DNA of 64,000 bases from a virus (lineage: Duplodnaviria; Heunggongvirae; Uroviricota; Caudoviricetes), in IMG/VR virus record IMGVR_UViG_2737471844_000002, positions 1-64,000 of that record. One strand, 5' to 3'. The position numbers were made by a program, and so were the translations under genes. Shown one piece after another: positions 6,820 to 60,597 of the stretch. Positions within the stretch are counted from its first letter, which is position 1; the number at the start of each line of letters is the position of its first letter. Below the pieces are notes generated by a model. The model was not told the origin of the DNA. It worked only from the letters and a program-made list of their open reading frames with translations, and made no database searches.

Positions 6820-6952
6820 TTTTCCTTTCCTATTTAACCAATTGATTTTCAATCACAAAACCATATAAAGACCAAAAGCAAAAAGAAAATACAAAGAAAA
6901 GGCTATTTTTGCTTTACATGGGTTACATATGGATCAATACTTATATCCGAAG

Positions 6953-40614: not shown

Positions 40615-42039
40615 ATGTCTGTATTAATTTCAGGGGCGCTGATTAATGGCGCTGGCGTTCCGATGGCGGAATGCAAAATTTATTTAGATGCACTGGTTAA
40701 TACCAGTGAAGTGGTCACTGAGTCATTTGCGGTTATTGAAACCGATGCGGCGGGACAGTATGCCTTTGAAGCACAAAAAGGCAAATACACCGTACACATC
40801 AAGCAAAAGAACGGCCCCAAGTGCTGCGTGGGTGACATTTCGGTTTACGACGACTCAAAGCCCGGCACGCTGAACGACTTTCTGACTGCCCTTGATGAAA
40901 GCGATTTAAAGCCGGATGTAGTGAAACGCTTTGAGGAACTGGCGCAACAGGCACAGCAGAGCGCGGAAGCCGCCGCTGGCAGCGAACAACAGGCAGGACA
41001 ACACGCCACTGATGCACAGCAGATTAAGGCCGACTGTCAGGCGCTGGCGAAAGACGTACAGCAGAACGCCGACGCGGTTGCGGAGGGTAAACAACAGGTC
41101 GAAAATCTGGTCTCACAGGTTGAGAATGCCGCCGAGGAGGTAAAAAAGGACGCTGAAGCTGCTAAACAGGCCGCATCTGATGCAGAGCATGTCAGGGAGG
41201 ATATTGACACCGCGTTATCTGCGACACTGAAAACGGCGAATCGTTTATCAGAGCTGGCTGATGAAGGTGAAGAGGCTCAGCAGGAATCCCGTGATAATCT
41301 TGGACTGAAAAGCGCTGCCACAATGACGCCACAGAGCGACATTCGTGACCGGACTGAAGGTCGTCTGGCGACACCTGGCGCATTTGGTTTTGGGCATATT
41401 TTTTTGCCCGCAGAGCGGATCCGTTTTAACACAGAGGATGATTTTCTGTCCTGGGTAAGGAATGCGACGCCGGGTGAATATTTTGTTGAGGGTGGCAGTA
41501 AAATCATATCCGGAGGTGTGTTGTTTAACGGGGTGGTCAGCATCCGGTGGGTTGAGGCACGCAATAATCCACCGGAACCGCGATATACATCAAAGGCCAT
41601 TATTTTCTACGGTATCAATGGCGATGTTTATTACAGCCGCTACTGGACAACAGGTAATGGTTATCTGACTGGCTGGGAAAATCTGAAAATTACCTCACAG
41701 GACATTATCTCTCTTCTGTCCGGTATTGCTCCCGGTACCACGGACGGCTGGTACGGTGCAGGCAGTCTTGTACTGGCGGCTTATAACGGTAAGGGAGACG
41801 CAGACACCGACCGCCGGATAAAACGCGGTTACAGCTATCCGGGGTCACGCCTGAGCGCGGTTGAATTTATGTGTCACGGCACGACCGGTAGCGGGGTTGG
41901 ATATAACGGCAGCGTTTCCGTATATGTGCGGAGTTCTGGTGGTGGTATGCCGGGGTCATATCGGGCACTGTCAGGTGATGGGCTCGGGTCTGCCGGGTCA
42001 GCCAGTGTCATGATTGGTTTGTTCATACGTATTGCGTAG
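40615..42039 (+). CDS. Second tail fibre-like protein
   Basis: Long Ala/Gln-rich coiled coil then Gly-rich C-terminal domain; followed by a second chaperone. Confidence 0.55.
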   Translation: MSVLISGALINGAGVPMAECKIYLDALVNTSEVVTESFAVIETDAAGQYAFEAQKGKYTVHIKQKNGPKCCVGDISVYDDSKPGTLNDFLTALDESDLKPDVVKRFEELAQQAQQSAEAAAGSEQQAGQHATDAQQIKADCQALAKDVQQNADAVAEGKQQVENLVSQVENAAEEVKKDAEAAKQAASDAEHVREDIDTALSATLKTANRLSELADEGEEAQQESRDNLGLKSAATMTPQSDIRDRTEGRLATPGAFGFGHIFLPAERIRFNTEDDFLSWVRNATPGEYFVEGGSKIISGGVLFNGVVSIRWVEARNNPPEPRYTSKAIIFYGINGDVYYSRYWTTGNGYLTGWENLKITSQDIISLLSGIAPGTTDGWYGAGSLVLAAYNGKGDADTDRRIKRGYSYPGSRLSAVEFMCHGTTGSGVGYNGSVSVYVRSSGGGMPGSYRALSGDGLGSAGSASVMIGLFIRIA

Positions 42040-42046
42040 GTGTTTT

Positions 42047-42613
42047 ATGGAAATAAAACGCATCGAAAATGCGCGTTATCTTGAAAATGGCGCGATTGAC
42101 TGCGGGGTGTTGTTTGATGGCATGGATGAACCGGTTCCGTATACGGCAACTGCCACGGATACAGCAGAGACAGGGCAGCGAGTCTGGCAGGAGCTGCAAA
42201 GTGGGAGATGGGGAGAAATAACGCCGTTCACCGTCACGCCAGAGATGCTGGAAGCAGCAAAAGCAGCCAAACGCCGGGAAATTGAAGCATGGCGCACAGA
42301 ACAGGAGGCGCAGCCATTCATTTTTGAATGGAACGGCCATAGCTGGAACGGGGGACCGGATTCTATGGCCCGTCTTTACCCGGTGGTGATGTCAGCAAAA
42401 TCAGTCACGGCACGGAAATCTATGGTATGGGGTGATGCGGAAAATCAGCAGGTAAAGTTGTCAATGCAACAACTGGATGAACTGCTTACTGCAATGGTTC
42501 AGGCGCAGGTCGATCGCAATGACGAGATTTATCGCCGTCAGCGGGAGATGAAGGAAACACTGGCGGGGCTGGATGACCTGAACACCATCAGAAGTCTGCC
42601 CATCAGTGAATAA
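42047..42613 (+). CDS. Second tail fibre assembly chaperone
   Basis: Position after the second fibre gene. Confidence 0.65.
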   Translation: MEIKRIENARYLENGAIDCGVLFDGMDEPVPYTATATDTAETGQRVWQELQSGRWGEITPFTVTPEMLEAAKAAKRREIEAWRTEQEAQPFIFEWNGHSWNGGPDSMARLYPVVMSAKSVTARKSMVWGDAENQQVKLSMQQLDELLTAMVQAQVDRNDEIYRRQREMKETLAGLDDLNTIRSLPISE

Positions 42614-42649: not shown

Positions 42650-42735
42650 ATTTTGCGCTTTATTCTGGATTTTTTTTATTATGTCAACCGTTCAAAATAA
42701 AGCGCTAAATAGTCCAGAAAAAATCGCGAAGTTAC
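42650..42735. repeat. Right end of the Mu-like element with inverted copy of the terminal motif (AGTCCAGAA at 42711..42719)
   Basis: Reverse complement of the right terminus matches the left terminus in register at 17 of 26 positions when the right terminus is taken as 42736. Confidence 0.5.
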
Positions 42736-42740
42736 ACACG
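42736..42740. repeat. Target-site duplication ACACG, right copy
   Basis: Identical to 5862..5866. Confidence 0.6.
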
Positions 42741-45291
42741 CGGCGCGGTGGATGAAGCCATGGCCTCGCTGCGCCTGCTGCCGTCCTATCTGCGCGATCC
42801 GCTTATTCGCCACCTCTCCTTCCTTCGCAAAAAACAGGAAGCCGATCGCCGGAAAGGCAAAAAGAGCTGGCAGGCGGAACGCTATGCACGCGGAACCCTG
42901 CGCAAAATATTCGAACGTCTGGATCGCACTGACGGACGCTGGCTGACACCGGGTTATCGCTCCCTTGCCGGACGCGAACGCCTGGACGATTTGCTTTACC
43001 TGCCGCAGCTCAACAAACACCAGATACAGACGTTGGCCACCATGACGGCGGCGATGTTCAGCAGCACCTTCGAAAAGCTCTGCGATGGCTTTGGCGCCAG
43101 AGATGGCGAGCTGACCATGGATGTAATGTTGAAGGCTTACCGGATGCTGGCTCGTATCGCATTACGCCTGCACATCATGCCGCCACATTACGAAGCCCTG
43201 AACAAGAGCGAACCGGATACGGAACTGCTGCCGGGCGCAATCCTTCGCCTGACCTGTGCGGACTGGTGGAAACGCAAACTGTGGCTGTTACGTTGCGAGT
43301 GGAGAGAAGAACAACTCCGCGCCGCCTGTCTGGTTTCCAGAAAAACATCGCCTTATCTGAGCCAGGACGCGTTAAGCGAGTTTCGCGCACAGCGCGAGAA
43401 AACACGCGATTTCCTGAAAAGTTTCATGCTGGAAAACGAAGACGGGTTCACGATTGATCTCGAGACAGTGTATTACGCGGGAGTAAGTAACCCGGTTCAC
43501 CGTAAGGCAGAAATGATGGCCACCATGAAGGGGCTGGAACTTCTGGCCGAAGCCCGTGGTGACAAAGCGGTGTTTCTGACTGTCACCTGCCCGTCAAAAT
43601 ACCACGCAACAACGGAGAACGGTCATCCGAATCCCAAATGGAACGGGGCCACCATGCGCGACTCCAGCGATTACCTGGTTAACACGTTTTTTGCGGCGGT
43701 CCGCAAGAAACTGAACCGCGACGGCCTGCGCTGGTATGGCATCCGCACGGTGGAGCCTCACCATGACGGCACCGTGCACTGGCATATGATGGTCTTTGCC
43801 CATCCGGAAGAAATCGACACCATTGTGTCCCACACCCGCGATATTGCCATTCAGGAAGATCGTCACGAGCTGGGCGATGATATTACTCCGCGCTTTAAGG
43901 CGGAGTATGTCGACGGCTCAAAAGGCACGCCAACCAGCTACATCGCCACCTACATCGGAAAAAACCTGGACAGCCGCGCCGTGGATGGCATCGCCCCGAA
44001 AACAGGCAAACCACGCGTTGACCACGAAACCGGAAAATCAATGGCCGAGAGCGTGGAGCGCGCCATCGGCTGGGCGCGCCTTCACCGGGTCCGCCAGTTC
44101 CAGTTCTTTGGCATCCCCTCCCGTCAGGTGTGGCGTGAACTGCGCCGCCTTGCCAGCCAGATGGCACGCAACCCGGAAGGCCCGCAACGGCTGAAGGACG
44201 ACGCAATGGATGCGGTACTCGCTGCCGCTGATGCCGGGTGTTTTGCCTCCTACATTGAAAAACAGGGTGGCGTACTTGTTCCACGCAAGGACTACCTGAT
44301 TCGCACCGCCTACGACCTCGCAGATGAGCTGAACGATTACGGCGAACAGAGCGTACAGATTTACGGGATCTGGTCACCACTCATCGGGGAATCCTCCCGT
44401 GTGTGCACGCACCCGGATAACTGGAAGCTGGTAAGACGTAAACCGGAAGCGGAAGACAGCGCCCGCGAAAATTGTTTTGACCTTCAGGGCGGCCCTGCCG
44501 CCCCTTGGACTCGTGGCAATAACTGTCCCCGTGTACAGGAAACGGACAACAACGGGACAGAACAGCCGGAAGAACGGCCAGCACCGTGGCCGCAGCTTCC
44601 TGACGGCGTTGATGTGGATGAATGGATGCGCTCACTGAAACGGCACGAACGCCGGGCGCTGATGCGTTCGCTGCGTGACAAACAGGCCAAAAACAGCAGT
44701 GATGAAATGCAGAACTGGACACAGAGCCGCAAACAGCCACAGCCTTTGCCTGATAAACACGAATTACTCGCTAAAGAATGGCGGGAGTCTGCCGAATCTC
44801 TCGGCCTGCATATCGGTGAACAGCAGATGCAGCACCTGTTACGGGGCGGCAGCCTGTACGTTGACGGCAGCATCATTGCACCGCAGGGATTTGAAATTGT
44901 ACGCAAACCGGATACCCGCCCGGACAGCCGAATCACGCAGCTCTGGCAGCGCCTGAGCCGTAATCACGGCGTAAGCAGCACGGAGATCCGCCATAACCCG
45001 GTCGCCAGCTATCTGGCACAGCTCGGGGCATCAGACCCCGAAGCCGCCGCACGCCTGGCATCCACACTTCAGCAGGACCAGAACACCATGAAAACACCCG
45101 TTACCGTGCTTTCTGACATGCTGCGCGCCATTCGTGACGCAGAGCACGCACAGAGAATCAGTGAAACCACTGAACACGCCCGCCGCAAAGCAGACCTGCT
45201 GCGGGGTAGCCTGACCAGTGGCAACAAAAAACAGACAGAAACGGGATTCACAAATCCCGCAAATGAGCAAAAAACGCGCCGCGATATATGA
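42741..45291 (+). pseudogene. A: Replication initiator gene A (P2 gpA-like rolling-circle endonuclease), 3-prime part separated from its 5-prime end by the Mu-like insert
   Basis: TVTCPSKYH and VEPHHDGTVHWHMMVF motifs match my recollection of P2 gpA; frame continuous with 5610..5866. Confidence 0.8.
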
Positions 45292-45367
45292 AGCGCGCAC
45301 AAAACAGGCGAAAGCGGGATTTAAAAATCCCGTAAACGGTTAATTAACCAACATAAGGAAAATCGAC

Positions 45368-46327
45368 ATGAAAATTTGTATCGACGACGGCTCCACCAAC
45401 ATCAAGCTGGCATGGACTGAAAACGGCGAACGCCGCAACGCCATCAGCCCGAACAGCTTCAAGTCGGAATGGTCTGCGCCGTTCGGTGGCTCGCAGCCTG
45501 CGAACTACATGCTTGATGGCGTGCGCTATGGTTTTGATCCGGTCAGCGATCGCTTTGTCCAGACGACCGACACGCAATACCAGTACAGCGATGTGAATGT
45601 CATTGCCATTCATCACGCGCTGGTCAAATCAGGCATCACGCCACAGGAAGTGGATGTTGTTGTCACCCTGCCACTGAGCGAATATTTCGACACTAACGCC
45701 CAGCCGGACATGGCCAACATCAACCGCAAAAAAGCGAACGTTATGCGCCCGGTGGAGTACCAGAACGGTGAGGCATTCACTATCCGTAACGTGCGGGTTA
45801 TGCCTGAATCCATTCCGGCTGGCTTTAAGGCACTGGCTGACATGAGTCCGTTTGAATCCCTGCTGATTGTGGATTTGGGCGGAACCACGCTGGATGTGGC
45901 AAAGGTTCAGGGGCAACTGGCAGGTATCAGCCAGGTGTTTTGCGATCCACACGTAGGCGTTTCTCTGATGGCCGATGCCGTACTGTCGGTGATGGCCACT
46001 AACGGTATGCGCACCAGTCACCACATAGCCAATACCATTATCGAACATCGCCATGATGAAGCCTGGCTGCGCCAGCACATCCACAATGACGCGCATTACG
46101 CCAGCCTGATGGCGGTTATTCGTGAAAAGGAAGAAACACTGAAACAACGTGTTATCCGCGCGCTGGCGGTTTTTTCGGGTTACGGGCGGGTGATGGTTGT
46201 CGGTGGAGGGGCGGAGATTGTGGCACCCGCTATCCGCGAAGCCTGCGGAGTTAATGCGACTTTCATCGCGGACGGGGTGCCACAGTTTGCTCTGGTTAAT
46301 GGGCTGTACGCAATGGACAAGGAGTAA
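45368..46327 (+). CDS. parM: ParM/StbA-like actin-type partition ATPase
   Basis: IDDGSTNIKL...ISPNSFK.EW...QYSDVNVIAIHHAL..SG....EVD...TLPL matches ParM/StbA as I recall it. Confidence 0.75.
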   Translation: MKICIDDGSTNIKLAWTENGERRNAISPNSFKSEWSAPFGGSQPANYMLDGVRYGFDPVSDRFVQTTDTQYQYSDVNVIAIHHALVKSGITPQEVDVVVTLPLSEYFDTNAQPDMANINRKKANVMRPVEYQNGEAFTIRNVRVMPESIPAGFKALADMSPFESLLIVDLGGTTLDVAKVQGQLAGISQVFCDPHVGVSLMADAVLSVMATNGMRTSHHIANTIIEHRHDEAWLRQHIHNDAHYASLMAVIREKEETLKQRVIRALAVFSGYGRVMVVGGGAEIVAPAIREACGVNATFIADGVPQFALVNGLYAMDKE

Positions 46328-46331
46328 ACCA

Positions 46332-46643
46332 ATGACGACTCCAACCAGACGGATAAGTTTCTATCTGAAGCCCACCGCCGTCAAGAACGAAGGAGAAGCA
46401 TGCGCCTGGCTGGACAGCCTTACACCAGAAGCCCGCAAAAGCGGCCAACGCGTGGCTTTTCTGGCCGGGCTGGCACTTCTGAAAATGAATCCGGCAGAGG
46501 CTTACCGACTGGCTGCATGGGCTGATGATGAGGTGTTATCAGTGACACAAACCAAGACAGAACGCCCCGCGTCACAGCCAGTATCAACCGCACAGATAAC
46601 CAGTCAGATGGCCGGAAATATCCGGGCGTTATTTCCTGAATAA
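46332..46643 (+). CDS. ParR/StbB-like partition adaptor candidate
   Basis: Small protein 4 nt after the parM-like gene. Confidence 0.4.
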   Translation: MTTPTRRISFYLKPTAVKNEGEACAWLDSLTPEARKSGQRVAFLAGLALLKMNPAEAYRLAAWADDEVLSVTQTKTERPASQPVSTAQITSQMAGNIRALFPE

Positions 46644-47021
46644 CATCAGGGCGTATTCGCCCTGCCACCAATCCCATAACATAAAGAACGGGGTGCAAAT
46701 CACTATGCACCCCGTTCCAATACAAACCATCAGAAGATCTACACATCTTTCTCAAATGGCCAAGTAATCGAGCTGGTTCAGGAATAAGCAGGCTGCCAAC
46801 ACAAGTGAAGGAGATAAAACTGTAGAACTGATCAATCGTTGGAAACAAGTATTGACAGTATGTTCGAGTAACCCAACTGGATAGATTTTATGCTGATTAT
46901 CCATACAGTAAAAAAGTGAGGATACTCTTTGAATTACGCCAGCAAGAGTGGTAACATTAGTCAATGATTTTCATTAATGTAGTTACCAGCTTACACAAGC
47001 TGATGTTTTATTGGGGGTTTT

Positions 47022-48104
47022 ATGGTAAACGTGAGGGAGGATGAACTTTTCAAACTCATCGAGCAAGGCATCAAAGGCAACGCAAATGCATTTACACTCC
47101 TATGCAGAAAGATGATTAACAACATCCGTAAAAATGATGAGGCTTTAGCTTCTAAGCTGGCTTCGTTAGTTGCTGAGGGAACAGTATTACGTGGGGCATC
47201 TAGTAAGGCTCCTATGCCTGTGGATGGAGACTCCAGACGAAACCTTTTGCAGGAAACATCTGTCAACGCAATTGTTGAAGAACCTGTATGGAATACGGAT
47301 ATCTCAAAGAAGCTGGAGTCAATTGTTAACGAAAGAGAGAATGCGGTTTCTTTGTTCAAAGCTGGTCTTGAACCTGTGAAGACGGTTTTACTTTCTGGCC
47401 CGCCAGGCGTAGGCAAAACAATGTCCGCACATTGGCTTGCTGCAAAGTTAAATTTACCTCTTTTAACATTGGATCTCTCATCTGTAATGAGTTCTCTTTT
47501 GGGAAAAACAGGTAATAATATTAAATCCGTTATGGATTATGCCAAAGAGAAACCATGTGTCCTTTTGCTTGATGAATTTGATGCTGTTGCAAAAAGACGT
47601 GATGATGACAGGGACGTTGGAGAATTAAAACGTTTAGTTACTGTACTCCTACAGACCATAGATGAGTGGCCAGCGACCTCGCTTCTTGTTGCTGCGACTA
47701 ATCACCCTGATATCTTAGATCCGGCTGTTTGGCGTCGATTTGAGCACATCCTTAAATTTAATATGCCATCAGTAGAACTGATAGATAGATATTTAGTCAA
47801 TCATAATATTGAACCTGAACTATCTAAAAAACTTGCACCATTATTAGATGGCATGTCCTTTGCCATCATTAACCGTATTTTGAATTTCTCCAAAAAGAAT
47901 GAGGTACTTAGAAATATTCCATTTGAAAGCTCATTAATAGAAGCCGTAATTACGGAGAGGGTTTCATTGGATGAGTTTAGCGATAATGATCTCAATATAA
48001 TTAAATATCATTTTGACGGTTTTTCAAATAGGAAGATAGCTGAATTAGTTGGTGTTTCACATCCAACAATCGCGAATAAATTACAAAAGTGGGGGATTAA
48101 ATGA
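47022..48104 (+). CDS. AAA+ ATPase with C-terminal HTH (IetA-like)
   Basis: Walker A GPPGVGKT, Walker B LLLDEFD, sensor/Arg-finger ATNHPDILDPAVWRRF, C-terminal NRKIAELVGVSHPTIANKL; AT-rich. Confidence 0.85.
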   Translation: MVNVREDELFKLIEQGIKGNANAFTLLCRKMINNIRKNDEALASKLASLVAEGTVLRGASSKAPMPVDGDSRRNLLQETSVNAIVEEPVWNTDISKKLESIVNERENAVSLFKAGLEPVKTVLLSGPPGVGKTMSAHWLAAKLNLPLLTLDLSSVMSSLLGKTGNNIKSVMDYAKEKPCVLLLDEFDAVAKRRDDDRDVGELKRLVTVLLQTIDEWPATSLLVAATNHPDILDPAVWRRFEHILKFNMPSVELIDRYLVNHNIEPELSKKLAPLLDGMSFAIINRILNFSKKNEVLRNIPFESSLIEAVITERVSLDEFSDNDLNIIKYHFDGFSNRKIAELVGVSHPTIANKLQKWGIK

Positions 48105-50305
48105 TGGAAAGGAACTTACTTTTAGGTAACGGTCATGTTCTGACAAAAAAGGAACCTTTGCCTAAAGGAAGGGATGGTAAGCGCTATCCCTATACTCTTG
48201 AAGAAGTAAGGGAGCATTTAAACCCAGAGATTGATACTTTACTCTCACGCTTTCGCAGTTTGGATGATGCGGCTAAGCCAAGGGGGGAGAGTGTATTCAA
48301 TTTAACTTTACACCCAGCGTTTTTGGGTAAAAGCTACTTTCCGGAAGGATTGCTTAGAGCGACAGGTTTACGGGATGTCGGTAGCCGTCAGGTAATCATT
48401 CGCCCACGGAAAGCGGCACGTCAGTGCGATCAGAATAAGGACTTAGTAACGGCGCAACTGTTTGTTAGCGGTGATGATGATGCCGTTATAAGATTTAAGG
48501 AAATTTTAAATTCCCCTACAGCTCCGAAGGGCGTACAAAAGGATTTGATCGAAATTGAAAGTGTTAGCTTTTTTGAAGGAAAAGAGAGAGCACGCAATTT
48601 TGAGCATGCGAAAAGTGATTTGATAAAATTTGAAGTGGTTCTTCATGCTGGGGTTGAAGACGATGATATCGTTAAAGCCTATATTAGCTATGCGGCACAA
48701 TATGATGTCTCTGTTGATTACAAAAGTAGAATCCAAGTTGGTGGGCTGACTTTCATCGTTGCACACGCGCGACCTGAAGATATGAAAAAAACACTCGATT
48801 TTTCATTAATCCGCGTTGTGCGGCCGATGCCGTCTCTCAGGTGTACTCAGCCGAACATTGTCAGAAAGTTATCTAATATAGTTACACCGGAGCTCCCTAA
48901 TTCTAAAGCTGTTCTTGAATCCGAACGTATTGCCATTTTTGATGGTGGCTTGGGGACAGCTGACTTGAGTAATTGGGTTACGGAATACGTGTATCCAGAC
49001 ACCAAAGAAACAAGCGGATTATTATTGCAGCACGGTAATGAAGTGACATCCACTTTCTTATTCGGACGTGTCGAGGAAAATGCACCTTCTTTTAAAAGAC
49101 CGTTTATGAATGTAGATCATTATAGAGTTCTTTCACCGACATCAGGTGACAATGGCAATTGGGATTTATTTGATGTCCTTAAGAAAATACAGTCCGTTCT
49201 TGATAGTGGTGACTATAAGTTCGCTAATCTAAGTATTGGTCCTCATCTTCCAATTGGTGATGATGAGGTTCATGTATGGACTGCTGTTTTAGACCAAATC
49301 TGTGCTAAGCATGGGATATTACTTACTGTTGCTGTTGGGAATGATGGCAATGAGGACGGTGATGCAGCGAGAATACAACCTCCTTCCGATATGGTAAACG
49401 CGCTAGCGATTGGTGCTGCTGATCGTAGCGGTGAAAAATGGGGGCGGGCACCATATAGCTGTATTGGGCCAGGCAGAAGCCCCGGATTCGTTAAACCTGA
49501 TGGTGTTATTTTTGGTGGAAGCGACGACGAGCCTTTTTACACTTACAACCCTCTGCTTGGTTCTATAGTTGGAGTTCAAGGAACCAGTTATGCCTCTCCA
49601 TTAGCATTGAGAACGGCCGCTGGAGTTGCGGCTCTATCAGGAACTCCATTGAACACCATTGCATTGAAAGCGTTGCTTGTTCATCATGCTGAAACATCAA
49701 GAAAATATTCGCGTGAACATATCGGTTGGGGACGGTTTAGTGAGGATCCTAACGTTTTAATCGATTGTCCAAATGATACTGCTACAGTAATTTACTATGG
49801 TTCATTAGCAAAAAATAAATATTTAAGGGCACCGATCCCATTCCCTGATGTTCCCTTTGACGAAGCATTTGAGCTTACCGCTACTTTATGCATTCAAACC
49901 CCAGTAGATCCTGAACATTCAGTAAACTATACAAGGGCCGGTATGCAGGTAACTTTCCGCCCAAGATTCGGCCTTGACGATACCGATACAGATGATTTCT
50001 TTGGTCAAAAAAGCCAGTATAAGACTGAAAGGGAGTGTAGGAGTGAAGGTCATAAATGGGAAACTTGTTTGCACAGAAGCAAAAAGTTCAGTGCTGATAC
50101 ATTATTAAGCGATCCAGTTTTTGATATACGGTATCATGCCCGAGATTCTTCGCGCCATGTTAAGGGAGTTTCAGCCCCTGATATGCAATATGCGATGGTA
50201 ATAAGCGTAAGGGTAAAAGACTTTGATTTATATAATGTTATTCGCCAGCGATATACAATTCTGAATCCTATTCAACTGCGCACACAAATTTCTCTCGACA
50301 CGTAA
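48101..50305 (+). CDS. S8 subtilisin-like serine peptidase (IetS-like)
   Basis: Asp IAIFDGG, His QHGNEVTS, Asn VAVGNDGNE, Ser GTSYASP; start overlaps the ATPase stop (ATGA); AT-rich. Confidence 0.85.
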   Translation: MMERNLLLGNGHVLTKKEPLPKGRDGKRYPYTLEEVREHLNPEIDTLLSRFRSLDDAAKPRGESVFNLTLHPAFLGKSYFPEGLLRATGLRDVGSRQVIIRPRKAARQCDQNKDLVTAQLFVSGDDDAVIRFKEILNSPTAPKGVQKDLIEIESVSFFEGKERARNFEHAKSDLIKFEVVLHAGVEDDDIVKAYISYAAQYDVSVDYKSRIQVGGLTFIVAHARPEDMKKTLDFSLIRVVRPMPSLRCTQPNIVRKLSNIVTPELPNSKAVLESERIAIFDGGLGTADLSNWVTEYVYPDTKETSGLLLQHGNEVTSTFLFGRVEENAPSFKRPFMNVDHYRVLSPTSGDNGNWDLFDVLKKIQSVLDSGDYKFANLSIGPHLPIGDDEVHVWTAVLDQICAKHGILLTVAVGNDGNEDGDAARIQPPSDMVNALAIGAADRSGEKWGRAPYSCIGPGRSPGFVKPDGVIFGGSDDEPFYTYNPLLGSIVGVQGTSYASPLALRTAAGVAALSGTPLNTIALKALLVHHAETSRKYSREHIGWGRFSEDPNVLIDCPNDTATVIYYGSLAKNKYLRAPIPFPDVPFDEAFELTATLCIQTPVDPEHSVNYTRAGMQVTFRPRFGLDDTDTDDFFGQKSQYKTERECRSEGHKWETCLHRSKKFSADTLLSDPVFDIRYHARDSSRHVKGVSAPDMQYAMVISVRVKDFDLYNVIRQRYTILNPIQLRTQISLDT

Positions 50306-50312
50306 TTTTTAT

Positions 50313-50334
50313 GGCCGCGAAAGCGGCCTTTTTT
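50313..50334 (+). terminator. Rho-independent terminator after the peptidase gene
   Basis: GGCCGCGAAAGCGGCC hairpin followed by TTTTTT. Confidence 0.7.
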
Positions 50335-50758
50335 CTGTAATTTTTTTATGAATTTACATGCACGATAGTGCACAAATTTGCACAATTTTTTTGAACGAAT
50401 TTTTGCCCTTCTGGCCCGCGTGGCGGCTGGATCCGTCAGGGATCCGTGCGTGCACAAAAAAACGCGCTTTTTCTGCGCGCAGGTGACGGGGGAACAGCCC
50501 GCGTTTCAGGGGGTAAATAGCATTCCCTGAACGATGTCGCAGCGACACAACAGAATGGCTGTATTTCTCACGCTGAACGTGAAAAAGGCGTGAGGGATTC
50601 TGATTTGATGGGGTGAAAGGTAAGGCCGTCAAAATCGCACTGAGGCGGCGAAGAACATGCAGTCAACGCGGTGGGATTGCGTAAAAGTCTGACCGCCGAT
50701 GATGGCAATAAGCAGAAAAGCGTCGTGAAATTATCTGATTGATACAGGAGCTGGAGAG

Positions 50759-50787
50759 CCGGGGCATAAATTTTTTATGCCCCGGCG
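50759..50787. terminator. Strong 13-bp-stem hairpin between the cargo region and gene Q
   Basis: GCCGGGGCATAAA-TTT-TTTATGCCCCGGC. Confidence 0.35.
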
Positions 50788-50810
50788 AAGCAGCAGACAA
50801 GCGAAGCGCG

Positions 50811-51857
50811 TCAGGATGTGGGCTGGGTATCTAACAGTGCGTAAGGGTTAAAGCGGATCACCTCTTCGCCAAGCCAGTCATTGATGTGCTTCATGGCCTC
50901 CATGACGGGCATCAGCTCGTTAATTGCGTAAACCCGCGCGGCCTTCTCCACATCACCAAACGCACTTTTTTCACCCGGCATCGCCCCCATCAGTTGCGGC
51001 GGAACGCGGTGCGCAGCCAGCACATCATCACGGGATGCCGCCTTAACATTCATGAACTCATCCTTTGCGGTGATCTGCTGGAACGGCAAAATTTGCACAC
51101 CTTCTTTGCCACCGTTGGGCGCATGAATGAGCACGTTTTTAAATGCACCACCACCACGCGCACCCTGTAACGTTTCTTTCAGGGAGTCCATGCTTTCGCG
51201 GTTTACCTGCGCTGCACCGATGTAGATGATGCACCCGGCGTGGGATCCGTTGTCGTAATACAGTTTTCTGAACATGTCCGCCGAATGAGACAGGCTGGCC
51301 GAGAGTAATGCGCCGAGATATTCCGGCATGCCGTAGATTTCCTGGTTAATGTCAGGATTCATCAGGTGGCACACTTTGCCAGGGCGAAACTGAAACGCAT
51401 CCTTGCCATCCTGCACATACCACCATGATTCAAGATCGCTTCCGCGTCGCATGTATTTCGCCAGGGCGTGCCGTAATTTAAGCGGTTCGCCGAGCATATT
51501 GCTTCGAAGCTCAAGGAATGCGTTACCGAACACAAACCAGTCCAGCGCCAGCGCCGAGAAATCCTGCCGGGAAAGCAGCGGGTGCGGAATATAGCAGCCG
51601 AGCAATACATTGCGCTTAAAGTAAAGCGCAGACTGATGCCAGGACGTTTGCCGGGCAGCTCTTGCCAGACCGTACCAGTCCACCGGGGTTTCATACCACC
51701 GCCCGTTATCAGCACAGTACATATTGTCCAGCAGGTCATGCCCGGTCAGGCGATAAGGACCATCAAATGTGAATGCACTGAGCGATGATTCTTTCCTGAG
51801 CGCATCAGCGAGATCAATGCGTGAACTCATGCGCACTTTTTTATTTTTTCTGCTCAT
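50811..51857 (-). CDS. Q: Portal protein (P2 Q-like)
   Basis: 348 aa, minus strand, adjacent to the large terminase, P2 order. Confidence 0.8.
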   Translation of the reverse strand: MSRKNKKVRMSSRIDLADALRKESSLSAFTFDGPYRLTGHDLLDNMYCADNGRWYETPVDWYGLARAARQTSWHQSALYFKRNVLLGCYIPHPLLSRQDFSALALDWFVFGNAFLELRSNMLGEPLKLRHALAKYMRRGSDLESWWYVQDGKDAFQFRPGKVCHLMNPDINQEIYGMPEYLGALLSASLSHSADMFRKLYYDNGSHAGCIIYIGAAQVNRESMDSLKETLQGARGGGAFKNVLIHAPNGGKEGVQILPFQQITAKDEFMNVKAASRDDVLAAHRVPPQLMGAMPGEKSAFGDVEKAARVYAINELMPVMEAMKHINDWLGEEVIRFNPYALLDTQPTS

Positions 51858-53608
51858 CAGAACTCCATAACCGTGAAACGCTCGTTTTCTCCTTCGCCGC
51901 CAATCGGTTCGTTAATGACAGCAAGCATGGTTGCCCACGCAAGGTCGCCGTGGCTGATCCCCCTCGCGCGGTCCGTTTCGTAAGTGATAAAGCCGCCCGG
52001 TGTTTTCACCTTACGCACGGCGTTAAAGGCCGCGACCAGCTCGCGTTCGGCGCGATCGTATTCCCAGCGCCCGGCACGCATTATTTGCAGCATTTTCAGT
52101 ACCAGCGACCGTTTTGATGACAGCGTGAAGGTGTACGGAATAGCAGCAGGGAAAAACCGTTTCACTATCTGATAAACAGCCTCCCCGTTCCCGCCCGTCA
52201 CATCAATGCCGATGTGTTCCACGTTGTAGCGACACGTGAACTCTTCAATGACTCTGGCCTGTTCTTCAAACTCCAGCCCCTGAACGCGTCGCGTCTCCAC
52301 CGTTCGAAAACGGCCACCAGGAACAGCCGGAGGAACCACCACGGACAAAGCGCCGCTGTCGCCGTTGCCACTGCTGCCGTTTGCGTCATACCCAATCCAT
52401 ACCGGACGATTCCCCATCGGGCGGGGAGCAAAAGGTTTCCAGTCTTTCCAGTCGTCGTATCCGTCAACACCGCAGCCAATCAGGATATTCAGGTTAAATG
52501 CCGATTCCCCTTCGCGGACAAACTCACACATATAGAGATTGAGGAACTCGTCTTCGGTGTTTTCATCACGAATTTCGTCGATATCGGTGTGTTTCCAGCC
52601 GTGATTAACCACATCTTCCAGCGTGACAATTTGCCGCCATGTCCGGTCAGGGCAGATAAGCCCGTTATGCAGCGTTTTCCAGTCCACAAAAAAACGCTGG
52701 CGTTTATGCGAGGCCTTTTTCTCGTTCCAGCGGTCGCCATTCCAGTAGGCGTATGCCTCGTGCGTTTCGGTGGATGGCGTGGAGAAGTAGGTGCGCCGCA
52801 GTCCGCTGAGGGTTGCCATAGCGCCAGCCACCTTGCGCAGTTCAGCAAAGCGACTGACCCAGAAAAATTCATCAAAATAAAAATTGCCCGTATAGGACTG
52901 TGCCGACGCAGCAGAAGTGCCGAGAAAATGCAGCTCTGCGCCGTTGGAGAGGATGATTTTATCGCCCCCTTTCAGCTCCACATCAACTTCAGCCGCGGCC
53001 TTCTGAATAATGCTTTTAAACTGGAACGCCTGACGACGCGACGCAGACAAAAAAATCTGGTTACGCTGGTAAGGTTGCGCCACATCGTCACGCAGCGCCA
53101 TCAGCAGCGCTTCCTGTGCAAAATACCAGGTCGCCCCAATCTGTCGGGATTTCAGGATCATCCTGTTACGTATCCCGGCTTCCCTGCAAAGGGTCAGGGA
53201 GTCAAACCAGCCCCGCTGATGCCACTCCAGCCTGCTGATGATTTTTTCCCGCAGTGCGGCAATCTGTTCCGGCGTGAAATGATTTTTGAGTTTTTTCGCC
53301 CGGCCTTTCTTTCCTGCGGCCATCACATCCGGCTGGCCATCATGCAGCTTTTTAAGCTGCCGGGTCAGCAGGTCTATTTCCTTAAAGTCACCGCCTGTTT
53401 TATTCTGTTTTTCAGTAAGCTGGATGAGGCGCGCATCGATGGACTGCGTGACACGCTGCACGGGTGGCGTTTCATCCCACTGGTCGCGTTTTTTCCACGC
53501 ATAAATCGTGTTCGGGTTTATTCCCATCAGACGTGATATTTCTGCGGGCGGATAACCCTGCCAGTAAAGTTGCCGCGCACGCTGGCGCACAAAAGCGTCC
53601 TGAATCAT
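51857..53608 (-). CDS. P: Terminase large (ATPase) subunit (P2 P-like)
   Basis: 583 aa, minus strand, divergent from the capsid operon. Confidence 0.85.
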   Translation of the reverse strand: MIQDAFVRQRARQLYWQGYPPAEISRLMGINPNTIYAWKKRDQWDETPPVQRVTQSIDARLIQLTEKQNKTGGDFKEIDLLTRQLKKLHDGQPDVMAAGKKGRAKKLKNHFTPEQIAALREKIISRLEWHQRGWFDSLTLCREAGIRNRMILKSRQIGATWYFAQEALLMALRDDVAQPYQRNQIFLSASRRQAFQFKSIIQKAAAEVDVELKGGDKIILSNGAELHFLGTSAASAQSYTGNFYFDEFFWVSRFAELRKVAGAMATLSGLRRTYFSTPSTETHEAYAYWNGDRWNEKKASHKRQRFFVDWKTLHNGLICPDRTWRQIVTLEDVVNHGWKHTDIDEIRDENTEDEFLNLYMCEFVREGESAFNLNILIGCGVDGYDDWKDWKPFAPRPMGNRPVWIGYDANGSSGNGDSGALSVVVPPAVPGGRFRTVETRRVQGLEFEEQARVIEEFTCRYNVEHIGIDVTGGNGEAVYQIVKRFFPAAIPYTFTLSSKRSLVLKMLQIMRAGRWEYDRAERELVAAFNAVRKVKTPGGFITYETDRARGISHGDLAWATMLAVINEPIGGEGENERFTVMEF

Positions 53609-53762
53609 TGCTCCCCCTGAGTCATTACAGGAAGATTACCCGCGCGCGAAACCGTTCTCCTTAACCCCCTGTTCTGGCCGTTTTCTTACAACAAAAGCCC
53701 TTTGTATCAGCCTGTTACGCTTTGCCATCATGACTGAAGAACCAGTCAGAGGGGCAAAAACT

Positions 53763-54599
53763 ATGGCTAATGAAAAAAAGACATCCCGCAAAAAGTTTCG
53801 CGTGGCTGTCTCCGGATCAACTGTTGATGGCCGCGAAATCAGCCCGGTACATCTGCGTGAAGCCGCCGAGAACTTCAACCCGGATGTTTACGCTGCCCGC
53901 GTGAACGTTGAGCACTATCTCTCGCCATGCCCGTCAAGCGAATTTTCCGCAATGGGCGATGTCACCGCGCTGAGTACGGAAGATATTACGGAAGGCCCGC
54001 TGGCCGGACGTACTGCGCTGTATGCAGAAATCGAACCGACCGAGCGCATGAAGCAGCTTGTCGCTGACGGCAAGAAAATCTATTCCAGTATCGAACTGCA
54101 CCCGCAGTTCTCCGTTAACGGGCGCGCCTATCTGGTCGGGCTGGCGATGACCGACACCCCGGCAAGCCTGGGCACTGAGCGCCTGAAATTTACGGCACAG
54201 CAACGTCAGGCGGTGATGACGTTCAACAGTGTCCAGGGTGAAGCACCGCTTATCTCCGAAGCCATCGAGTCTGAAATCATCGAAATGGCAGAACAACGCC
54301 AGGAAGAAGGCACCCAGTGGTTTAACCGCGTAATGGGGATTATTGGTCGTGGCCGCAAAGCGGATGGCGCCAGTTTCTCCCGTATTCAGGAAGCGGTGGA
54401 AGGTGTCGCAACGTCACAGGCCGACATTATCGACCGTTTTAATGTGCTGGAAACCCGCCATCAGCAGGACAGCCAGAAAATCACTTTACTGACCACAGAG
54501 CTGGCAGCACTGAAGGAAAAACTGCGCACGCAGGACGGCGATCCGCAGAACCGGTTCACCGCAACAGGTGCAGCCTCCGACCAGCTGGCTGACTTCTGA
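53763..54599 (+). CDS. O: Capsid scaffolding protein (P2 O-like)
   Basis: Position before the major capsid gene; start trimmed to MANEKK. Confidence 0.7.
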   Translation: MANEKKTSRKKFRVAVSGSTVDGREISPVHLREAAENFNPDVYAARVNVEHYLSPCPSSEFSAMGDVTALSTEDITEGPLAGRTALYAEIEPTERMKQLVADGKKIYSSIELHPQFSVNGRAYLVGLAMTDTPASLGTERLKFTAQQRQAVMTFNSVQGEAPLISEAIESEIIEMAEQRQEEGTQWFNRVMGIIGRGRKADGASFSRIQEAVEGVATSQADIIDRFNVLETRHQQDSQKITLLTTELAALKEKLRTQDGDPQNRFTATGAASDQLADF

Positions 54600-54622
54600 T
54601 AAGACAAAGGAGCAAATTTTTT

Positions 54623-55675
54623 ATGAATCTGGTGATGTCAGATATTACCCGCAACAAGCTGGGTTGCTATATGGCGCAGCAGGCGTCGCTTAATAATATC
54701 CCGGTTTCCGCACTGGTATCGCGATTTACCGTAGAACCCTCGGTGCAGCAGCGTTTTGAAAACGCCTCAAAGGAAAGTACCGAATTTACGAAAAGAATTA
54801 ACGTGATCGGCGTGACCGACCAGAAAGGCGAAAAAATCCTCCCGGATACCACAGGACCGATTGCGCGCACGAATACCAGTTATGACGGCACAAAACGCCG
54901 TAACCCGAATAACGTGGTTGATCTGAAAAACCGCAAATACCAGTGCGAACAGGTGAACTACGACACGTTTATTTCGTATCCGCAGCTTGATGCCTGGTCG
55001 GCACACCCTGATTTTCAGTCCCGCATCAGCGCACAGATTGCCCGACAGGTGGCACTTGACCGCATCATGATCGGTTTCAACGGCACGTCTCACGCGGATG
55101 AGTCCAACTTCAGCACCAACAAGTTGCTTCAGGACGTTAACGTGGGGTGGCTGGAGCACATCAGAACCGACGCCAGCGAACGCGTTATGAATGACGTGAC
55201 GCTGACCTCCCGTAACATGGACAACACCGTGGCGCACGCGGGTAAGTATGCGAACGCTGATGCACTGGTACAGGACGCGCGCTCATCCCTGCTGGATGAA
55301 TGGCACAAGGAAGCTGACGACCTCGTGGTGATTATGGGGCGCAACCTGTTTAACTCGCTGCGTCTGCCCGTGCTGAACAGCATCAGCGGCCAGAATCCCA
55401 ATGCGGAATTACTTGCCGGGCAGCTCATTCTGTCATCGCGCACCATTGGCGGTCTGGGCGTGTTCCTTGCGCCGTTCTTCCCGGATTCAACGATGCTGAT
55501 CACCTCGTTCAACAACCTGTCGATTTACTGGCAGAAAGGTTCAATGCGTCGTCTGATGAAAGATGAACCGGAATACAACCGCATCGCCACCTACCAGTCC
55601 ATCAATGACGCTTATGTCGTTGAAGACTATGGCAAGTGCGCGATGGTCACTGGCCTGAAGTTCGCCGACAGCTAA
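54623..55675 (+). CDS. N: Major capsid protein (P2 N-like)
   Basis: 350 aa after the scaffold gene. Confidence 0.8.
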   Translation: MNLVMSDITRNKLGCYMAQQASLNNIPVSALVSRFTVEPSVQQRFENASKESTEFTKRINVIGVTDQKGEKILPDTTGPIARTNTSYDGTKRRNPNNVVDLKNRKYQCEQVNYDTFISYPQLDAWSAHPDFQSRISAQIARQVALDRIMIGFNGTSHADESNFSTNKLLQDVNVGWLEHIRTDASERVMNDVTLTSRNMDNTVAHAGKYANADALVQDARSSLLDEWHKEADDLVVIMGRNLFNSLRLPVLNSISGQNPNAELLAGQLILSSRTIGGLGVFLAPFFPDSTMLITSFNNLSIYWQKGSMRRLMKDEPEYNRIATYQSINDAYVVEDYGKCAMVTGLKFADS

Positions 55676-55720
55676 TCAACTCACGGCGGGCATCATGCCC
55701 GCCTGTAACGGAGAGAAAAA

Positions 55721-56521
55721 ATGATTACTCCTGCACAGCAACACTGGCAGAACGTGATGGCACAGCGCGCAGGCCGGGCGAATGAAGGCGTGGACCACGC
55801 CGCGCGTACCGCGCATGAAGAGGTGCTGTATCGTCTGCGTCTGGCACAGGCCCGGCTTAAGGGCGTACAGGCCAGAAGCGCCAAAGCCGCCATCAAAAAA
55901 GAGTTGTTGCCGGACTTTTCCGGCTGGATTGAGGGAACACTGGAGGCTGACGGCGGGCAGCAGGATGAAGTGATTGCCACGCTGATGGTGTGGGCGATTG
56001 ACTGCGGCGATCTTCCGCTGGCGCTGCGTATTGGTGCATATGTGGTCCGTCACAACCTCATCATGCCGGATAACTTTGGACGTACTGCTGCTACGGTACT
56101 GACCGAAGAAATCTGCAACCCGGTACTGACGCAGGCCGGGACGGATGCCGACGCGGATTTGTCCGCCTTTATCGAACCACTGGATACCCTCCGGGAGATT
56201 GTCGCCGACCAGGACATGCCGGACGAAGTGCGCGCCAAATTATGCAAGGCGTGCGCCTTTGCCCGCCGTGGCCTGACCGATGCGGACAGCATGGCCTCAT
56301 CACTGAAGCTGCTGCGCGAAGCGATGCACCTGAACCCGAACGCAGGTGTGAAACGCGAGATTGCAACCCTTTCCCGCGCTCTGAAAAAAGCCGATTCCGC
56401 AGCCGCACCAGAAGATGCCAGCACACCGCAGGCGCAGGACGAAAGCAGCAAAAGTAAAAAGACAACGCGGAAGCCTGCAACACGAAAAACCACCGCGACG
56501 CAGAAGGCGAAGCGCGGTTAA
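55721..56521 (+). CDS. M: Terminase small/endonuclease subunit (P2 M-like)
   Basis: Position after the capsid gene. Confidence 0.7.
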   Translation: MITPAQQHWQNVMAQRAGRANEGVDHAARTAHEEVLYRLRLAQARLKGVQARSAKAAIKKELLPDFSGWIEGTLEADGGQQDEVIATLMVWAIDCGDLPLALRIGAYVVRHNLIMPDNFGRTAATVLTEEICNPVLTQAGTDADADLSAFIEPLDTLREIVADQDMPDEVRAKLCKACAFARRGLTDADSMASSLKLLREAMHLNPNAGVKREIATLSRALKKADSAAAPEDASTPQAQDESSKSKKTTRKPATRKTTATQKAKRG

Positions 56522-56613
56522 CGACTGACCCCGTCAGCGGGCGGCGTGCGCGGTGTTCCGGTTTGACTCCGTGACCGTTTACACCGCGCACCCACCGCCC
56601 GATTTTTTCAGGA

Positions 56614-57117
56614 GTGAACCCCATGAGTATGGTTGCCAGAACCAACCCCGGACCCGCAGAGGACGACATCACCGATACCGATGATGGTGATACCAGTATT
56701 TCAGCGGGTGCATTCTGGCCGGATATTGTGCTGCGTGAGCTGCGTCTGGCGGTACGACTGCCGGGGCGCGTGACCACCTCCCGCCTGCTGCATACCGCCA
56801 CCGGAGCTGTGGCACACGTTACCCGCGAGCTGGAAGCATGGCAGCAGGAACAGCAGGCGGCTGGCCATCAGACGCTGGCCGATGTTCCGGCACCCGTAAT
56901 TAACGGAGAAAGCGTCAATCTCTGGCACTGGCGCAATGCTGTTTATACCGCCACGCGCGCCCTGATTCTGGAGCGTTATCGTGATGCAGACACAACGGAC
57001 AAGGGCGACCGCCGGGCGGACGCACTGGATATACAGACATCGGATTTGTGGCGTGATGTGAGCTGGGCCATCTCTGACATTCTGTGCCGCCCGCGAATCT
57101 TTGCGGAGTTGTGCTGA
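56614..57117 (+). CDS. L: Head completion protein (P2 L-like)
   Basis: Position. Confidence 0.6.
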   Translation: MNPMSMVARTNPGPAEDDITDTDDGDTSISAGAFWPDIVLRELRLAVRLPGRVTTSRLLHTATGAVAHVTRELEAWQQEQQAAGHQTLADVPAPVINGESVNLWHWRNAVYTATRALILERYRDADTTDKGDRRADALDIQTSDLWRDVSWAISDILCRPRIFAELC

Positions 57118-57317
57118 TGAAAGTGAAGGCACTGGAAGGCGACACCGTGGATTCGCTCTGTTTCCGGTACTACGGCACGACGCAGGGCGTCACCGAAAAG
57201 GTGCTGGATGCTAACCCCGGACTCTGTCAGCAGGTATTTCTGGACGCCGGGCAGGACGTGGAGATGCCGGAGCCGGAGAAGAAGAAACGAGAAATGATTC
57301 AGTTGTGGGGGGAGTAG
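57117..57317 (+). CDS. X: Tail protein X-like (LysM-like)
   Basis: 67 aa, ATG overlapping the L stop. Confidence 0.55.
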   Translation: MKVKALEGDTVDSLCFRYYGTTQGVTEKVLDANPGLCQQVFLDAGQDVEMPEPEKKKREMIQLWGE

Positions 57318-57319
57318 CA

Positions 57320-57643
57320 GTGAGCACCATTCAAACAGGGATCACAGAGCAGGTTATTGCGTGGCTCTTTGACCACCTGCCAACGGTGTATGCAGTAGGC
57401 GCGGCAGTCAGCATTTCCGCGCTGATGAGTCTTTATGACGGACGAACACTGGTTCAGACCGTAACGGGATCGCTGGCGTGCGGCGTTCTTGCCATGGCCG
57501 TGGCCGGGTCGTTGCGCTTCTTCGGGTTTCCTGAAGATGCTGTGACGTTTATCGGCGCATCAATCGGTTTTATGGGGGCAGAGAAAGCACGCGACAAGGT
57601 TATTGCGGCCTTTAATCGCAGGGTGAAGGAGAAGGACGAATGA
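57320..57643 (+). CDS. Holin candidate
   Basis: Hydrophobic helices; upstream of the endolysin; GTG start. Confidence 0.5.
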   Translation: MSTIQTGITEQVIAWLFDHLPTVYAVGAAVSISALMSLYDGRTLVQTVTGSLACGVLAMAVAGSLRFFGFPEDAVTFIGASIGFMGAEKARDKVIAAFNRRVKEKDE

Positions 57644-58032
57644 GCAACACATTTAAATTCAGCAGCCGGAGCGAAAATAATTTGCAGGGCGTAAATCCTG
57701 ATCTGGTGAAAGTGACCCGGCGGGCACTGGAAATCTCGGAAGTGGATTTTGGTATCACCGAAGGGTTGCGCAGCCGTTACCGCCAGAAGCAACTGGTGGC
57801 CACGGGTAAGAGCCAGACCATGAACAGCCGCCACCTTACGGGTCATGCCGTGGATGTTGTGGCTTATATCGGCAGCCAGGTGTCATGGGAATGGCCGCTG
57901 TACGAAAAAATCGCAACCGCATTCAGACAGGCCAGCCGGGAACTGAATATTCCGGTGGAATGGGGCGGCGACTGGAAGACCCTGAAAGACGGACCGCATT
58001 TTCAGTTACCACACGGAGCCTATCCGGCATGA
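57640..58032 (+). CDS. Endolysin, M15-family peptidase type
   Basis: SRHLTGHAVDVV and DGPHFQL motifs consistent with a zinc D-Ala-D-Ala carboxypeptidase-like fold. Confidence 0.65.
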   Translation: MSNTFKFSSRSENNLQGVNPDLVKVTRRALEISEVDFGITEGLRSRYRQKQLVATGKSQTMNSRHLTGHAVDVVAYIGSQVSWEWPLYEKIATAFRQASRELNIPVEWGGDWKTLKDGPHFQLPHGAYPA

Positions 58033-58436
58033 AGCTCTGGCCCACGCTTGGCGTCGCTTTCCTTCTGATTGCCGCATGGGGAACATCCATGCGTCTGTCG
58101 TGGTCGCTGGGCCGGGAGAACGCCAGAAACGAAGCGCAGGCCAGCACCCTGAAAAGTACCGTCGACACCCTGAATATCATCAGCACCGGGGTACAGGATA
58201 TGCAGCAGGTGCTGGCGCAACTCCGCGTGGAAAATCAGCAACGCAATCAGGACGGAGAAGCCAGACGTGAACAGCTACGCAACGATATTGCAAAAGATGA
58301 ATGCGCCCACGCTTTGCCTGACGCTCGTTTTACTGACAGGTTGCGCAGGCACGCAGAACGCGCCACGGCCAGCGCCGTCAGTCCGGCTTATACCGCAGAC
58401 GCTGACCATACCGGTAACGCCTCCCCCCTTCCCTGA
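58029..58436 (+). CDS. i-spanin (LysB/Rz-like) candidate
   Basis: N-terminal TM helix then coiled coil; position after the endolysin. Confidence 0.45.
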   Translation: MKLWPTLGVAFLLIAAWGTSMRLSWSLGRENARNEAQASTLKSTVDTLNIISTGVQDMQQVLAQLRVENQQRNQDGEARREQLRNDIAKDECAHALPDARFTDRLRRHAERATASAVSPAYTADADHTGNASPLP

Positions 58437-60594: not shown

Positions 60595-60597
60595 ATC

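Follow-up and report, generated by a model that had tools for sequence, protein, structure and literature searches.

A 64,000-nucleotide stretch of viral DNA (Caudoviricetes; positions 1 to 64,000 of IMG/VR record IMGVR_UViG_2737471844_000002), referred to here as the window, carries a pair of adjacent genes at 45368-46643 that is predicted to be a ParM/ParR partition system of the R1 type (type II, StbA/StbB). The pair, parMR, is of plasmid-type descent, but it is an old and fixed backbone part of the P88-like branch of P2-type phages and not recent cargo. As for function, the chances are about even that parMR serves the phage DNA while it exists as extrachromosomal circles, following infection or induction, and not long-term lysogeny as a plasmid. 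The two genes are as follows:

45368-46327, plus strand: parM, actin-fold segregation ATPase of 319 amino acids (Pfam; alignment to 1mwk)
46332-46643, plus strand: parR, small adaptor of ribbon-helix-helix type, 103 amino acids (Pfam Plasmid_stab_B; PHROG)

An earlier note on this DNA had described a ParM/ParR-like module at 45368-46643 with 4 nucleotides between the genes, and both the coordinates and the gap (ACCA) proved exact. The start codon of parR is the ATG at 46332, within a longer mechanical open reading frame (ORF) at 46197-46643. Ribosome-binding sites precede both genes, AAGGAA at 45355-45360 for parM and AAGGAG at 46319-46324 for parR. ParM matched the Pfam families StbA_N (E 2.1e-82) and ParM C-terminal domain (E 6.3e-69), far past the cut-offs, and ParR matched Plasmid_stab_B, the StbB/ParR family (E 6.7e-24, score 84, cut-off 25 bits). 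The PHROG matches were phrog_691, "partition protein", for ParM (3e-90) and phrog_2515 for ParR (2e-58). ParM aligned over its full length to the R1 ParM structures (1mwk and others; E 6e-93), and the phosphate-1, connect, phosphate-2 and adenosine motifs of the actin-fold ATPase were all present (IDDGSTNIK, amino acids 5-13; MPESIPAG, 145-152; VDLGGTTLD, 168-176; VVGGGAE, 277-283). A lack of family matches, or loss of the actin-fold ATP-binding residues, would have spoken against the identification in the terms of the earlier note; the families matched and the motifs were intact, and the identity of the pair as ParM and ParR follows from these two results.

The ParR family profile, searched against the PDB, had as its top match the ribbon-helix-helix domain of pB171 ParR/StbB (2JD3, E 0.015). 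An alignment of 19 phage-lineage ParR variants, reaching down to about 55% identity, showed an invariant N-terminal RRISFYLKP, a conserved helical core (AFLAGLAL), a highly variable linker and a conserved C-terminus, NIRALFPE, of the form NI(R/Q)xxFPE. RRISFYLKP is the predicted DNA-reading strand of ribbon-helix-helix proteins, the DNA-contacting N-terminus of ParR. The C-terminal NIRALFPE aligned with the C-termini of the R1 (KKNAMKLIN) and pEL60 (RKNVQHLFP) proteins. The C-terminal 17 residues of R1 ParR are said to bind ParM, in work attributed to Salje and Lowe in 2008 and to Gayathri et al. in 2012. An AlphaFold2 monomer model of ParR had low confidence (predicted local distance difference test score 56.6) and was not used.

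The pair lies just downstream of gene A, as the earlier note had it, the gpA endonuclease gene ending at 45291. The elements of this region are:

42724-45291, plus strand: 3' part of gene A, encoding the gpA replication endonuclease (Phage_GPA, 6e-131; tblastn with P88 gpA)
44497-44530, plus strand: homologue of the P2 origin nick region, located within gene A (GCCGCCCCTTGGACTCGTGGCAATAACTGT, where P2 has GCCGCGCCTCGGAGTCCTGTCAATAACTGT; protein and DNA alignment)
45242-45259, no strand: palindrome 1, CGGGATTCACAAATCCCG, candidate ParR site, core of a 39-nucleotide unit at 45225-45263
45315-45332, no strand: palindrome 2, CGGGATTTAAAAATCCCG, candidate ParR site, core of a 39-nucleotide unit at 45298-45336
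45338-45349, no strand: AT-rich 12-bp palindrome, GGTTAATTAACC, weak candidate operator just 5' of the parM ribosome-binding site
46647-46664, plus strand: GC-rich hairpin, CAGGGCGTATTCGCCCTG, directly 3' of the parR stop codon

A spacer of 76 nucleotides, of the same length in every relative examined, separates the stop codon of gene A from parM. Palindrome 1 sits within the final codons of gene A and palindrome 2 in the spacer. Both are 18 bp long (CGGGATT-N4-AATCCCG), and they lie 73 bp apart, which is about 7 helical turns. The 39-nucleotide unit that contains them is present twice and is the sole repeat near parMR. The palindrome pattern had 2 matches in the window against 0.32 expected by chance, and only two copies in the whole 35.8-kb P88 genome. 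Both palindromes were kept in 11 Escherichia, Salmonella and Citrobacter loci, among which the arms of palindrome 2 were invariant and variation was confined to the 4-nucleotide centre. In the Hafnia lineage (parM 87.7% identical in nucleotides), both palindromes and their spacing were kept while the flanks and the intervening sequence had diverged, and palindrome 1 there is a perfect 16-mer. We infer that the two palindromes are ParR binding sites and together a candidate minimal centromere.

When the second 39-nucleotide copy is translated one frame (+1) off gene A, as ORF 45218-45343, it gives ...KQAKAGFKNPVNG, which echoes the gpA C-terminus ...KQTETGFTNPANE; the spacer thus resembles a duplicate of the 3' end of gene A. 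At the site of the AT-rich palindrome the sequence in other loci is GATTAATTAATC, in which two symmetric changes preserve the dyad. Hafnia and Cronobacter have lost the dyad, whose conservation does not reach beyond Escherichia and Salmonella, and this element was accordingly downgraded as of doubtful significance. A role of the two larger palindromes as a replication origin was rejected, since the homologue of the P2 nick region lies about 750 nucleotides away, inside gene A. In the P2 record the nick site is annotated at 29892, also within gene A; a pattern search with the P2 nick sequence gave no match at up to 3 mismatches, and the homologue came from alignment.

The earlier note had seen no centromere-like repeat array upstream of parM. 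This was borne out, as no tandem repeats were found near the module and no iteron family in 45000-47100 by tools that recovered the 11-bp iterons of R1 and the iterons of about 10 nucleotides of pEL60 as positive controls, but the 18-bp palindrome pair had been overlooked. A simple consensus match found no sigma-70-like site on the plus strand in 44900-47100, a scan that weak or non-sigma-70 promoters would escape; as a positive control it found TTTACA-17-AATAAT between the iteron clusters of pEL60. Two marks of type II systems, a direct-iteron parC upstream of parM and a ParR-autoregulated promoter of its own within parC, were not found at the phage locus.

In P2-type phages gene A belongs to the early operon, and the immunity repressor silences the early operon in lysogens. 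The genes parM and parR are the last of the block that ends in gene A and stand immediately before a variable defence hotspot. If parMR is transcribed with the early and replication genes, its products would be made only while the phage genome is extrachromosomal, which is the case on infection and once an induced prophage has excised. The two CGGGATT-N4-AATCCCG palindromes 5' of parM would then be bound by ParR dimers as a minimal centromere, and the conserved C-terminal peptide of ParR would capture ParM filaments. Filament growth would move or separate the monomeric circles arising from A-dependent rolling-circle replication. Such monomeric rolling-circle products are the packaging substrate of P2-type phages. 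The phage may thereby replicate or package its DNA better, or may secure a copy for each daughter cell ahead of integration, with a benefit similar to that of AlpA and AlpC of the prophage CGP3. A more detailed proposal, held more tentatively and rated somewhat short of even chances, is that parMR is a phage-adapted type II system which lost its plasmid-style parC, works from a two-palindrome minimal centromere under early-operon control, and moves or separates gpA-generated circles or, alternatively, seeds both daughters ahead of integration.

The integrated prophage CGP3 of Corynebacterium glutamicum encodes, in AlpA and AlpC, an ATPase of the actin-like kind together with a DNA-binding adaptor transcribed with it (PMC4446434, PMC5539076). 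The operon is induced early and the adaptor binds just upstream of its own operon (PMC4446434). AlpAC is required for efficient replication of the excised circular CGP3 DNA (PMC4446434, PMC5539076). AlpAC is the closest functional precedent and the best functional model for the P88-like pair. It is also a counter-example to a premise of the earlier note, that an integrated phage needs no partition system (PMC4446434).

Several points weigh against the action on phage circles proposed here. Co-transcription with gene A is deduced solely from the missing consensus promoter. R1 has 10 iterons, against which two sites are very few and may not suffice to build a ParR scaffold that holds a filament end, and one Cronobacter copy has an arm of palindrome 2 with a mismatch. 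RNA hairpins, or a site for some other protein, would account for the palindromes just as well, since the arms vary too little to distinguish these possibilities. AlpAC is not a close homologue, as the window ParM scored 25.9 bits against Pfam ALP_N, below the cut-off of 26.3; AlpAC comes from another host phylum and another phage type, and the resemblance is one of gene organisation and genomic setting only. Finally, P88-like genomes carry a hok/gef-type gene, which together with a partition system resembles a plasmid stability kit and fits an episome better.

The 1.5 kb around parMR had 94-97% nucleotide identity to 14 phage records, and all genus-assigned records among these were Xuanwuvirus (P88-like Peduoviridae). 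The matching phages include P88, P884B11, phiSM (Citrobacter rodentium), 520873, PhiR44_2, Chuche and 569R5. ParM was 95-99.4% identical in amino acids to its orthologues in the Xuanwuvirus phages P88, P884B11, phiSM, 520873, PhiR44_2 and Chuche, and in the isolated plaque-forming phages P88, phiSM, PhiR44_2, Chuche and 569R5 the protein identity was 98-100% at 94-97% nucleotide identity. Outside this group, the protein search found a ParM homologue in a single phage record, that of the P1-like D6 (47.8% amino acid identity). A survey of P2-like relatives, which the earlier note had proposed, found the module in all Xuanwuvirus-type loci examined, at the same place after gene A. The gene order A, parM, parR, variable genes and portal gene Q was found in every relative examined, and the genes between parR and Q vary from phage to phage. 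In P88-type loci the conserved backbone stops at the GC-rich hairpin, with variable cargo beyond it, and the hairpin is absent from some lineages; P88 homology stops at query position 1465, which is window position 46664.

Among 5426 complete Escherichia coli genomes, 1307 (about 24%) carried parMR, and the carriers include O157:H7, O104:H4, O26, ST131 and the enteropathogenic strain E2348/69. These genomes held 1455 copies of parMR, of which 1453 were chromosomal and 2 were on plasmids. The 3' end of gene A of this type, counted at a coverage of at least 80%, was present in 1355 genomes, about 1307 of them with parMR, which gives a linkage of about 96% and about 4% without the pair. The GC content of parMR (54-55%) is like that of gene A and the structural genes, and that of the adjoining cargo is 37-44%. 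A ParM scan of genome contigs gave 3 loci, and phage, plasmid and E. coli records, together with contigs that encode the protein, were therefore used to sample diversity.

The earlier note had suggested that the module may be cargo picked up from a plasmid. This holds for the deep past only; a recent acquisition is contradicted by the backbone GC content, the fixed site, the linkage to gene A and the absence of any close plasmid ParM. At least 5000 plasmid records contained a ParM homologue, of which 6 were at 99% identity or more, all 6 with the phage gene A alongside, and the remaining plasmid ParMs were below 60% identity (best 52.6%). Searches for ParR (tblastn against plasmids and a homologue search) returned the phage lineage only, and thus no plasmid ParR with the same DNA-reading strand against which the candidate centromere could be compared. 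The status of parMR as backbone rests on its fixed position, its GC content, the linkage to A, the selection described below and the absence of a recent plasmid donor. When the A-Q defence hotspot of P2-type phages is delimited, parMR should be counted as backbone and not as cargo.

P88-like gene A and parMR were also seen inside plasmids or plasmid-labelled replicons of 129-542 kb in NZ_CP110658.1, NZ_CP114132.1, NZ_MK439959.1 and CP054248.1 (PLSDB) and in NZ_CP183151.1 (E. coli). At least one of these records, NZ_CP110658.1, holds a second ParM homologue.

The module is already known from RefSeq and PHROGs annotation and, together with the idea of an episome, from Rousset et al. 2022. Phage records already label the genes "plasmid segregation protein ParM" and "partition protein" (P88 gp17 and gp18). 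Rousset et al. 2022 surveyed the gpA-gpQ locus of E. coli P2-like prophages, reported the module in roughly one P2-like phage out of four, and suggested plasmid maintenance in print (PMC9122126). In a paper on Citrobacter prophages the phiSM gene is listed as a "fitness" factor (PMC6456863). No experimental work on the P88-like parMR was found in the literature.

Maintenance as a plasmid prophage would mean that the phage persists as a low-copy episome, stably or in a prolonged carrier state, when integration fails or the bacterial attachment site attB is absent. Such persistence, also raised by the earlier note, is an unlikely explanation, and the assemblies do not support it. It can draw on parMR being a complete and selected partition pair, on the hok/gef-family gene, whose post-segregational killing is a typical plasmid function, and on pZ1323PEC0009-2 (NZ_CP148288.1), a 34,461-bp circular "plasmid" of an E. 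coli isolate from a cat, which comprises a whole P88-like phage genome, from integrase, gene A and parMR to the full set of structural genes. However, this was the one stand-alone phage circle among 72,556 PLSDB records; it retains the integrase, and the same study yielded another strain whose chromosome carries the segment between parR and the portal gene at 99.9% identity to the pZ1323 phage, the best match in the E. coli collection, where none was identical over the full length. Nearly all E. coli copies are chromosomal, as counted above, and at least 1 of the 2 plasmid copies is on a 129-kb plasmid, far exceeding phage size. An intact phage attachment site attP was found in 0 of 440 genomes with the integrase type of pZ1323, a test that is blind to pZ1323PEC0009-2 itself, since its record origin falls at attP. 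The P88, pZ1323 and SK1144 copies have no annotated replicon of plasmid type, their only annotated replication gene being the rolling-circle initiator A, and P2-type gene A is known to be repressed in lysogens. The pair also lacks the promoter and the iteron array typical of autonomous ParMRC cassettes. By the definition of a phage-plasmid as an extrachromosomal element with plasmid replication functions, the P88-like phages fall outside the class, having an integrase and chromosomal copies; residence on an autonomous low-copy replicon, a further mark of type II systems, was likewise not supported.

A 26.7-kb Shigella boydii "plasmid" was rejected as evidence of an episome, being a linear fragment ridden with insertion sequences. 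The hok/gef-family toxin gene lies near ogr and attP, at 34928-35068 in P88 and at 1291-1431 in pZ1323PEC0009-2, in a part of the phage genome that is outside the window.

Analysis of sequence variation showed that parMR is under strong purifying selection. The ratio of non-synonymous to synonymous substitution rates (dN/dS) of ParM was 0.066 (11 loci, 55 pairs, dS up to 0.21). For ParR it was 0.31-0.38, with the changes concentrated in the linker. At least two ParR types exist, with about 52% mutual identity, each with a near-invariant ParM and an identical upstream region, and RRISFYLKP is identical in both. Homology between ParR sequences breaks at about 46386 and about 46477 of the window, both inside parR, which suggests either recombination within parR or rapid evolution of the linker beside the hotspot.

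Could parMR instead be expressed in the lysogen and serve a purpose other than segregating phage DNA, either exclusion of or incompatibility with incoming related phages or plasmids, or regulation by ParR through the palindromes? The pair adjoins the A-Q defence hotspot, whose first gene in some lineages starts 15-20 nucleotides after parR in an operon-like manner, and ribbon-helix-helix repressors typically use palindromic operators. Yet neither protein matched any family among the PADLOC models, which did recognise the neighbouring proteins as IetA and IetS. The pair stays constant while the hotspot content turns over, its GC content is that of the backbone and unlike that of the defence cargo, and a purely regulatory ParR would leave the low dN/dS over the whole of the ParM ATPase unexplained. 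A role of this kind is thus considered improbable, more so than the episome.

The same selection data bear on whether the pair is a decaying, functionless relic of an old recombination between plasmid and phage. Broken copies do exist, as parM of phage 503458 is frameshifted into 4 pieces and one E. coli copy (H103) is truncated, and the roughly 4% of genomes that have this type of gene A without parMR point the same way. Against decay stand the dN/dS of ParM over 55 pairs, the invariance of the functional motifs of ParR in the 19 variants down to about 55% identity, and the retention of the pair by all infectious phages isolated from the genus; a relic is therefore highly improbable.

With ParMRC of plasmid R1, ParM shares 46.5% amino acid identity over the full length and every motif for nucleotide binding. 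The identity of ParR to its R1 counterpart is 34%, and the two have in common the N-terminal strand and helix core and a matching C-terminal KN(A/I)xxL(I/F) peptide. The R1 ParR query had matches of 100% identity in over 1000 plasmids. The order and tight spacing of parM and parR are also shared, and R1 pairs hok/sok with parMRC as P88-like phages pair hok/gef with parMR. By contrast, R1 parC is about 160 bp long with 5 + 5 direct iterons of 11 bp flanking its own promoter, whereas the phage has two palindromes only; the phage ParR is 14 amino acids shorter, an internal segment being missing; and R1 is a low-copy plasmid, whereas the P88-like replicon is an integrating phage.

The ParM of pEL60 (IncL/M-type, Erwinia amylovora) is among the closest plasmid ParMs (53.5% amino acid identity). 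Its ParR is 30% identical and ends in RKNVQHLFPDDD, which resembles the phage NIRALFPE. Unlike the phage locus, pEL60 has an upstream region of 240 nucleotides with iterons of about 10 nucleotides, GTATTTTTCT, on either side of a promoter matching 10 of 12 consensus positions, and its ParR has 147 amino acids with a long additional linker. The P1-like phage D6 also has StbA-type partition with a ParM homologue, but it has a 91-kb genome of the P1-like plasmid-prophage type, whereas P88-like phages integrate. The Xuanwuvirus orthologues have the same genes, position after gene A, upstream spacer and palindromes; only the downstream cargo differs, which in the window is IetAS, and gene A of the window is also interrupted.

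If parMR does act on phage circles as proposed, it would be the second phage-encoded actin system after AlpAC of CGP3, far more widespread and in a genetically tractable host. An unusually small centromere would be defined, and an actin-like cytoskeleton would be routine in the life cycle of a prophage family found in about a quarter of E. coli genomes.

The prophage copy in the window is not intact. E. coli SK1144 has an intact P88-like prophage, to which positions 1-3387 and 42787-61949 of the window are 96-98% identical, the latter segment (19.2 kb) at 97.9%, and gene A is interrupted by a Mu-like prophage. The remaining part of gene A carries codons 81-940 at 42724-45288 in the numbering of the P88-type protein. 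The features involved are:

596-1720: integrase
5610-5867, plus strand: 5' part of gene A, amino acids 1-86 (tblastn 98.8% over 86 amino acids; junction sequences)
5868-42723: Mu-like transposable prophage of about 36.9 kb, inserted in gene A, with junctions at about 5867/5868 and 42723/42724
6172-6852, minus strand: CI-type repressor of the Mu-like prophage
7238-9280: MuA-type transposase of the Mu-like prophage
9299-10192: MuB-like AAA ATPase of the Mu-like prophage
40615-42039: tail fibre gene, which with the next is the last of the Mu-like structural genes
42014-42613: tail fibre assembly gene

The insertion is flanked by a 4-5-bp target duplication, (A)CACG, and a search of 5426 complete E. 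coli genomes found its junction with gene A in none of them. With gene A split in this way, the P88-like prophage of the window cannot replicate and its parMR is severed from the early promoter; the module is a passenger there. The window ParM is still identical to the SK1144 protein, which suggests that the insertion is recent.

Beyond the module, in the variable A-Q hotspot, lies one further pair of genes that serves here as context:

47022-50305, plus strand: IetA/IetS anti-phage defence pair

IetA is an AAA ATPase of 360 amino acids (PADLOC 3.6e-89) and IetS an S8 peptidase of 734 amino acids (PADLOC 6.6e-41). Both were below the NCBIfam (IteA/IteS) equivalog cut-offs, and their GC content is 37-44%. 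A further ParM, 98% identical to that of the window, was found in an Escherichia-type prophage region of NZ_JBQPOM010000071.1, a 226-kb contig labelled Vagococcus sp. WN89Y. Vagococcus is a Gram-positive genus, and the contig is most likely a contamination or a mislabelled assembly.

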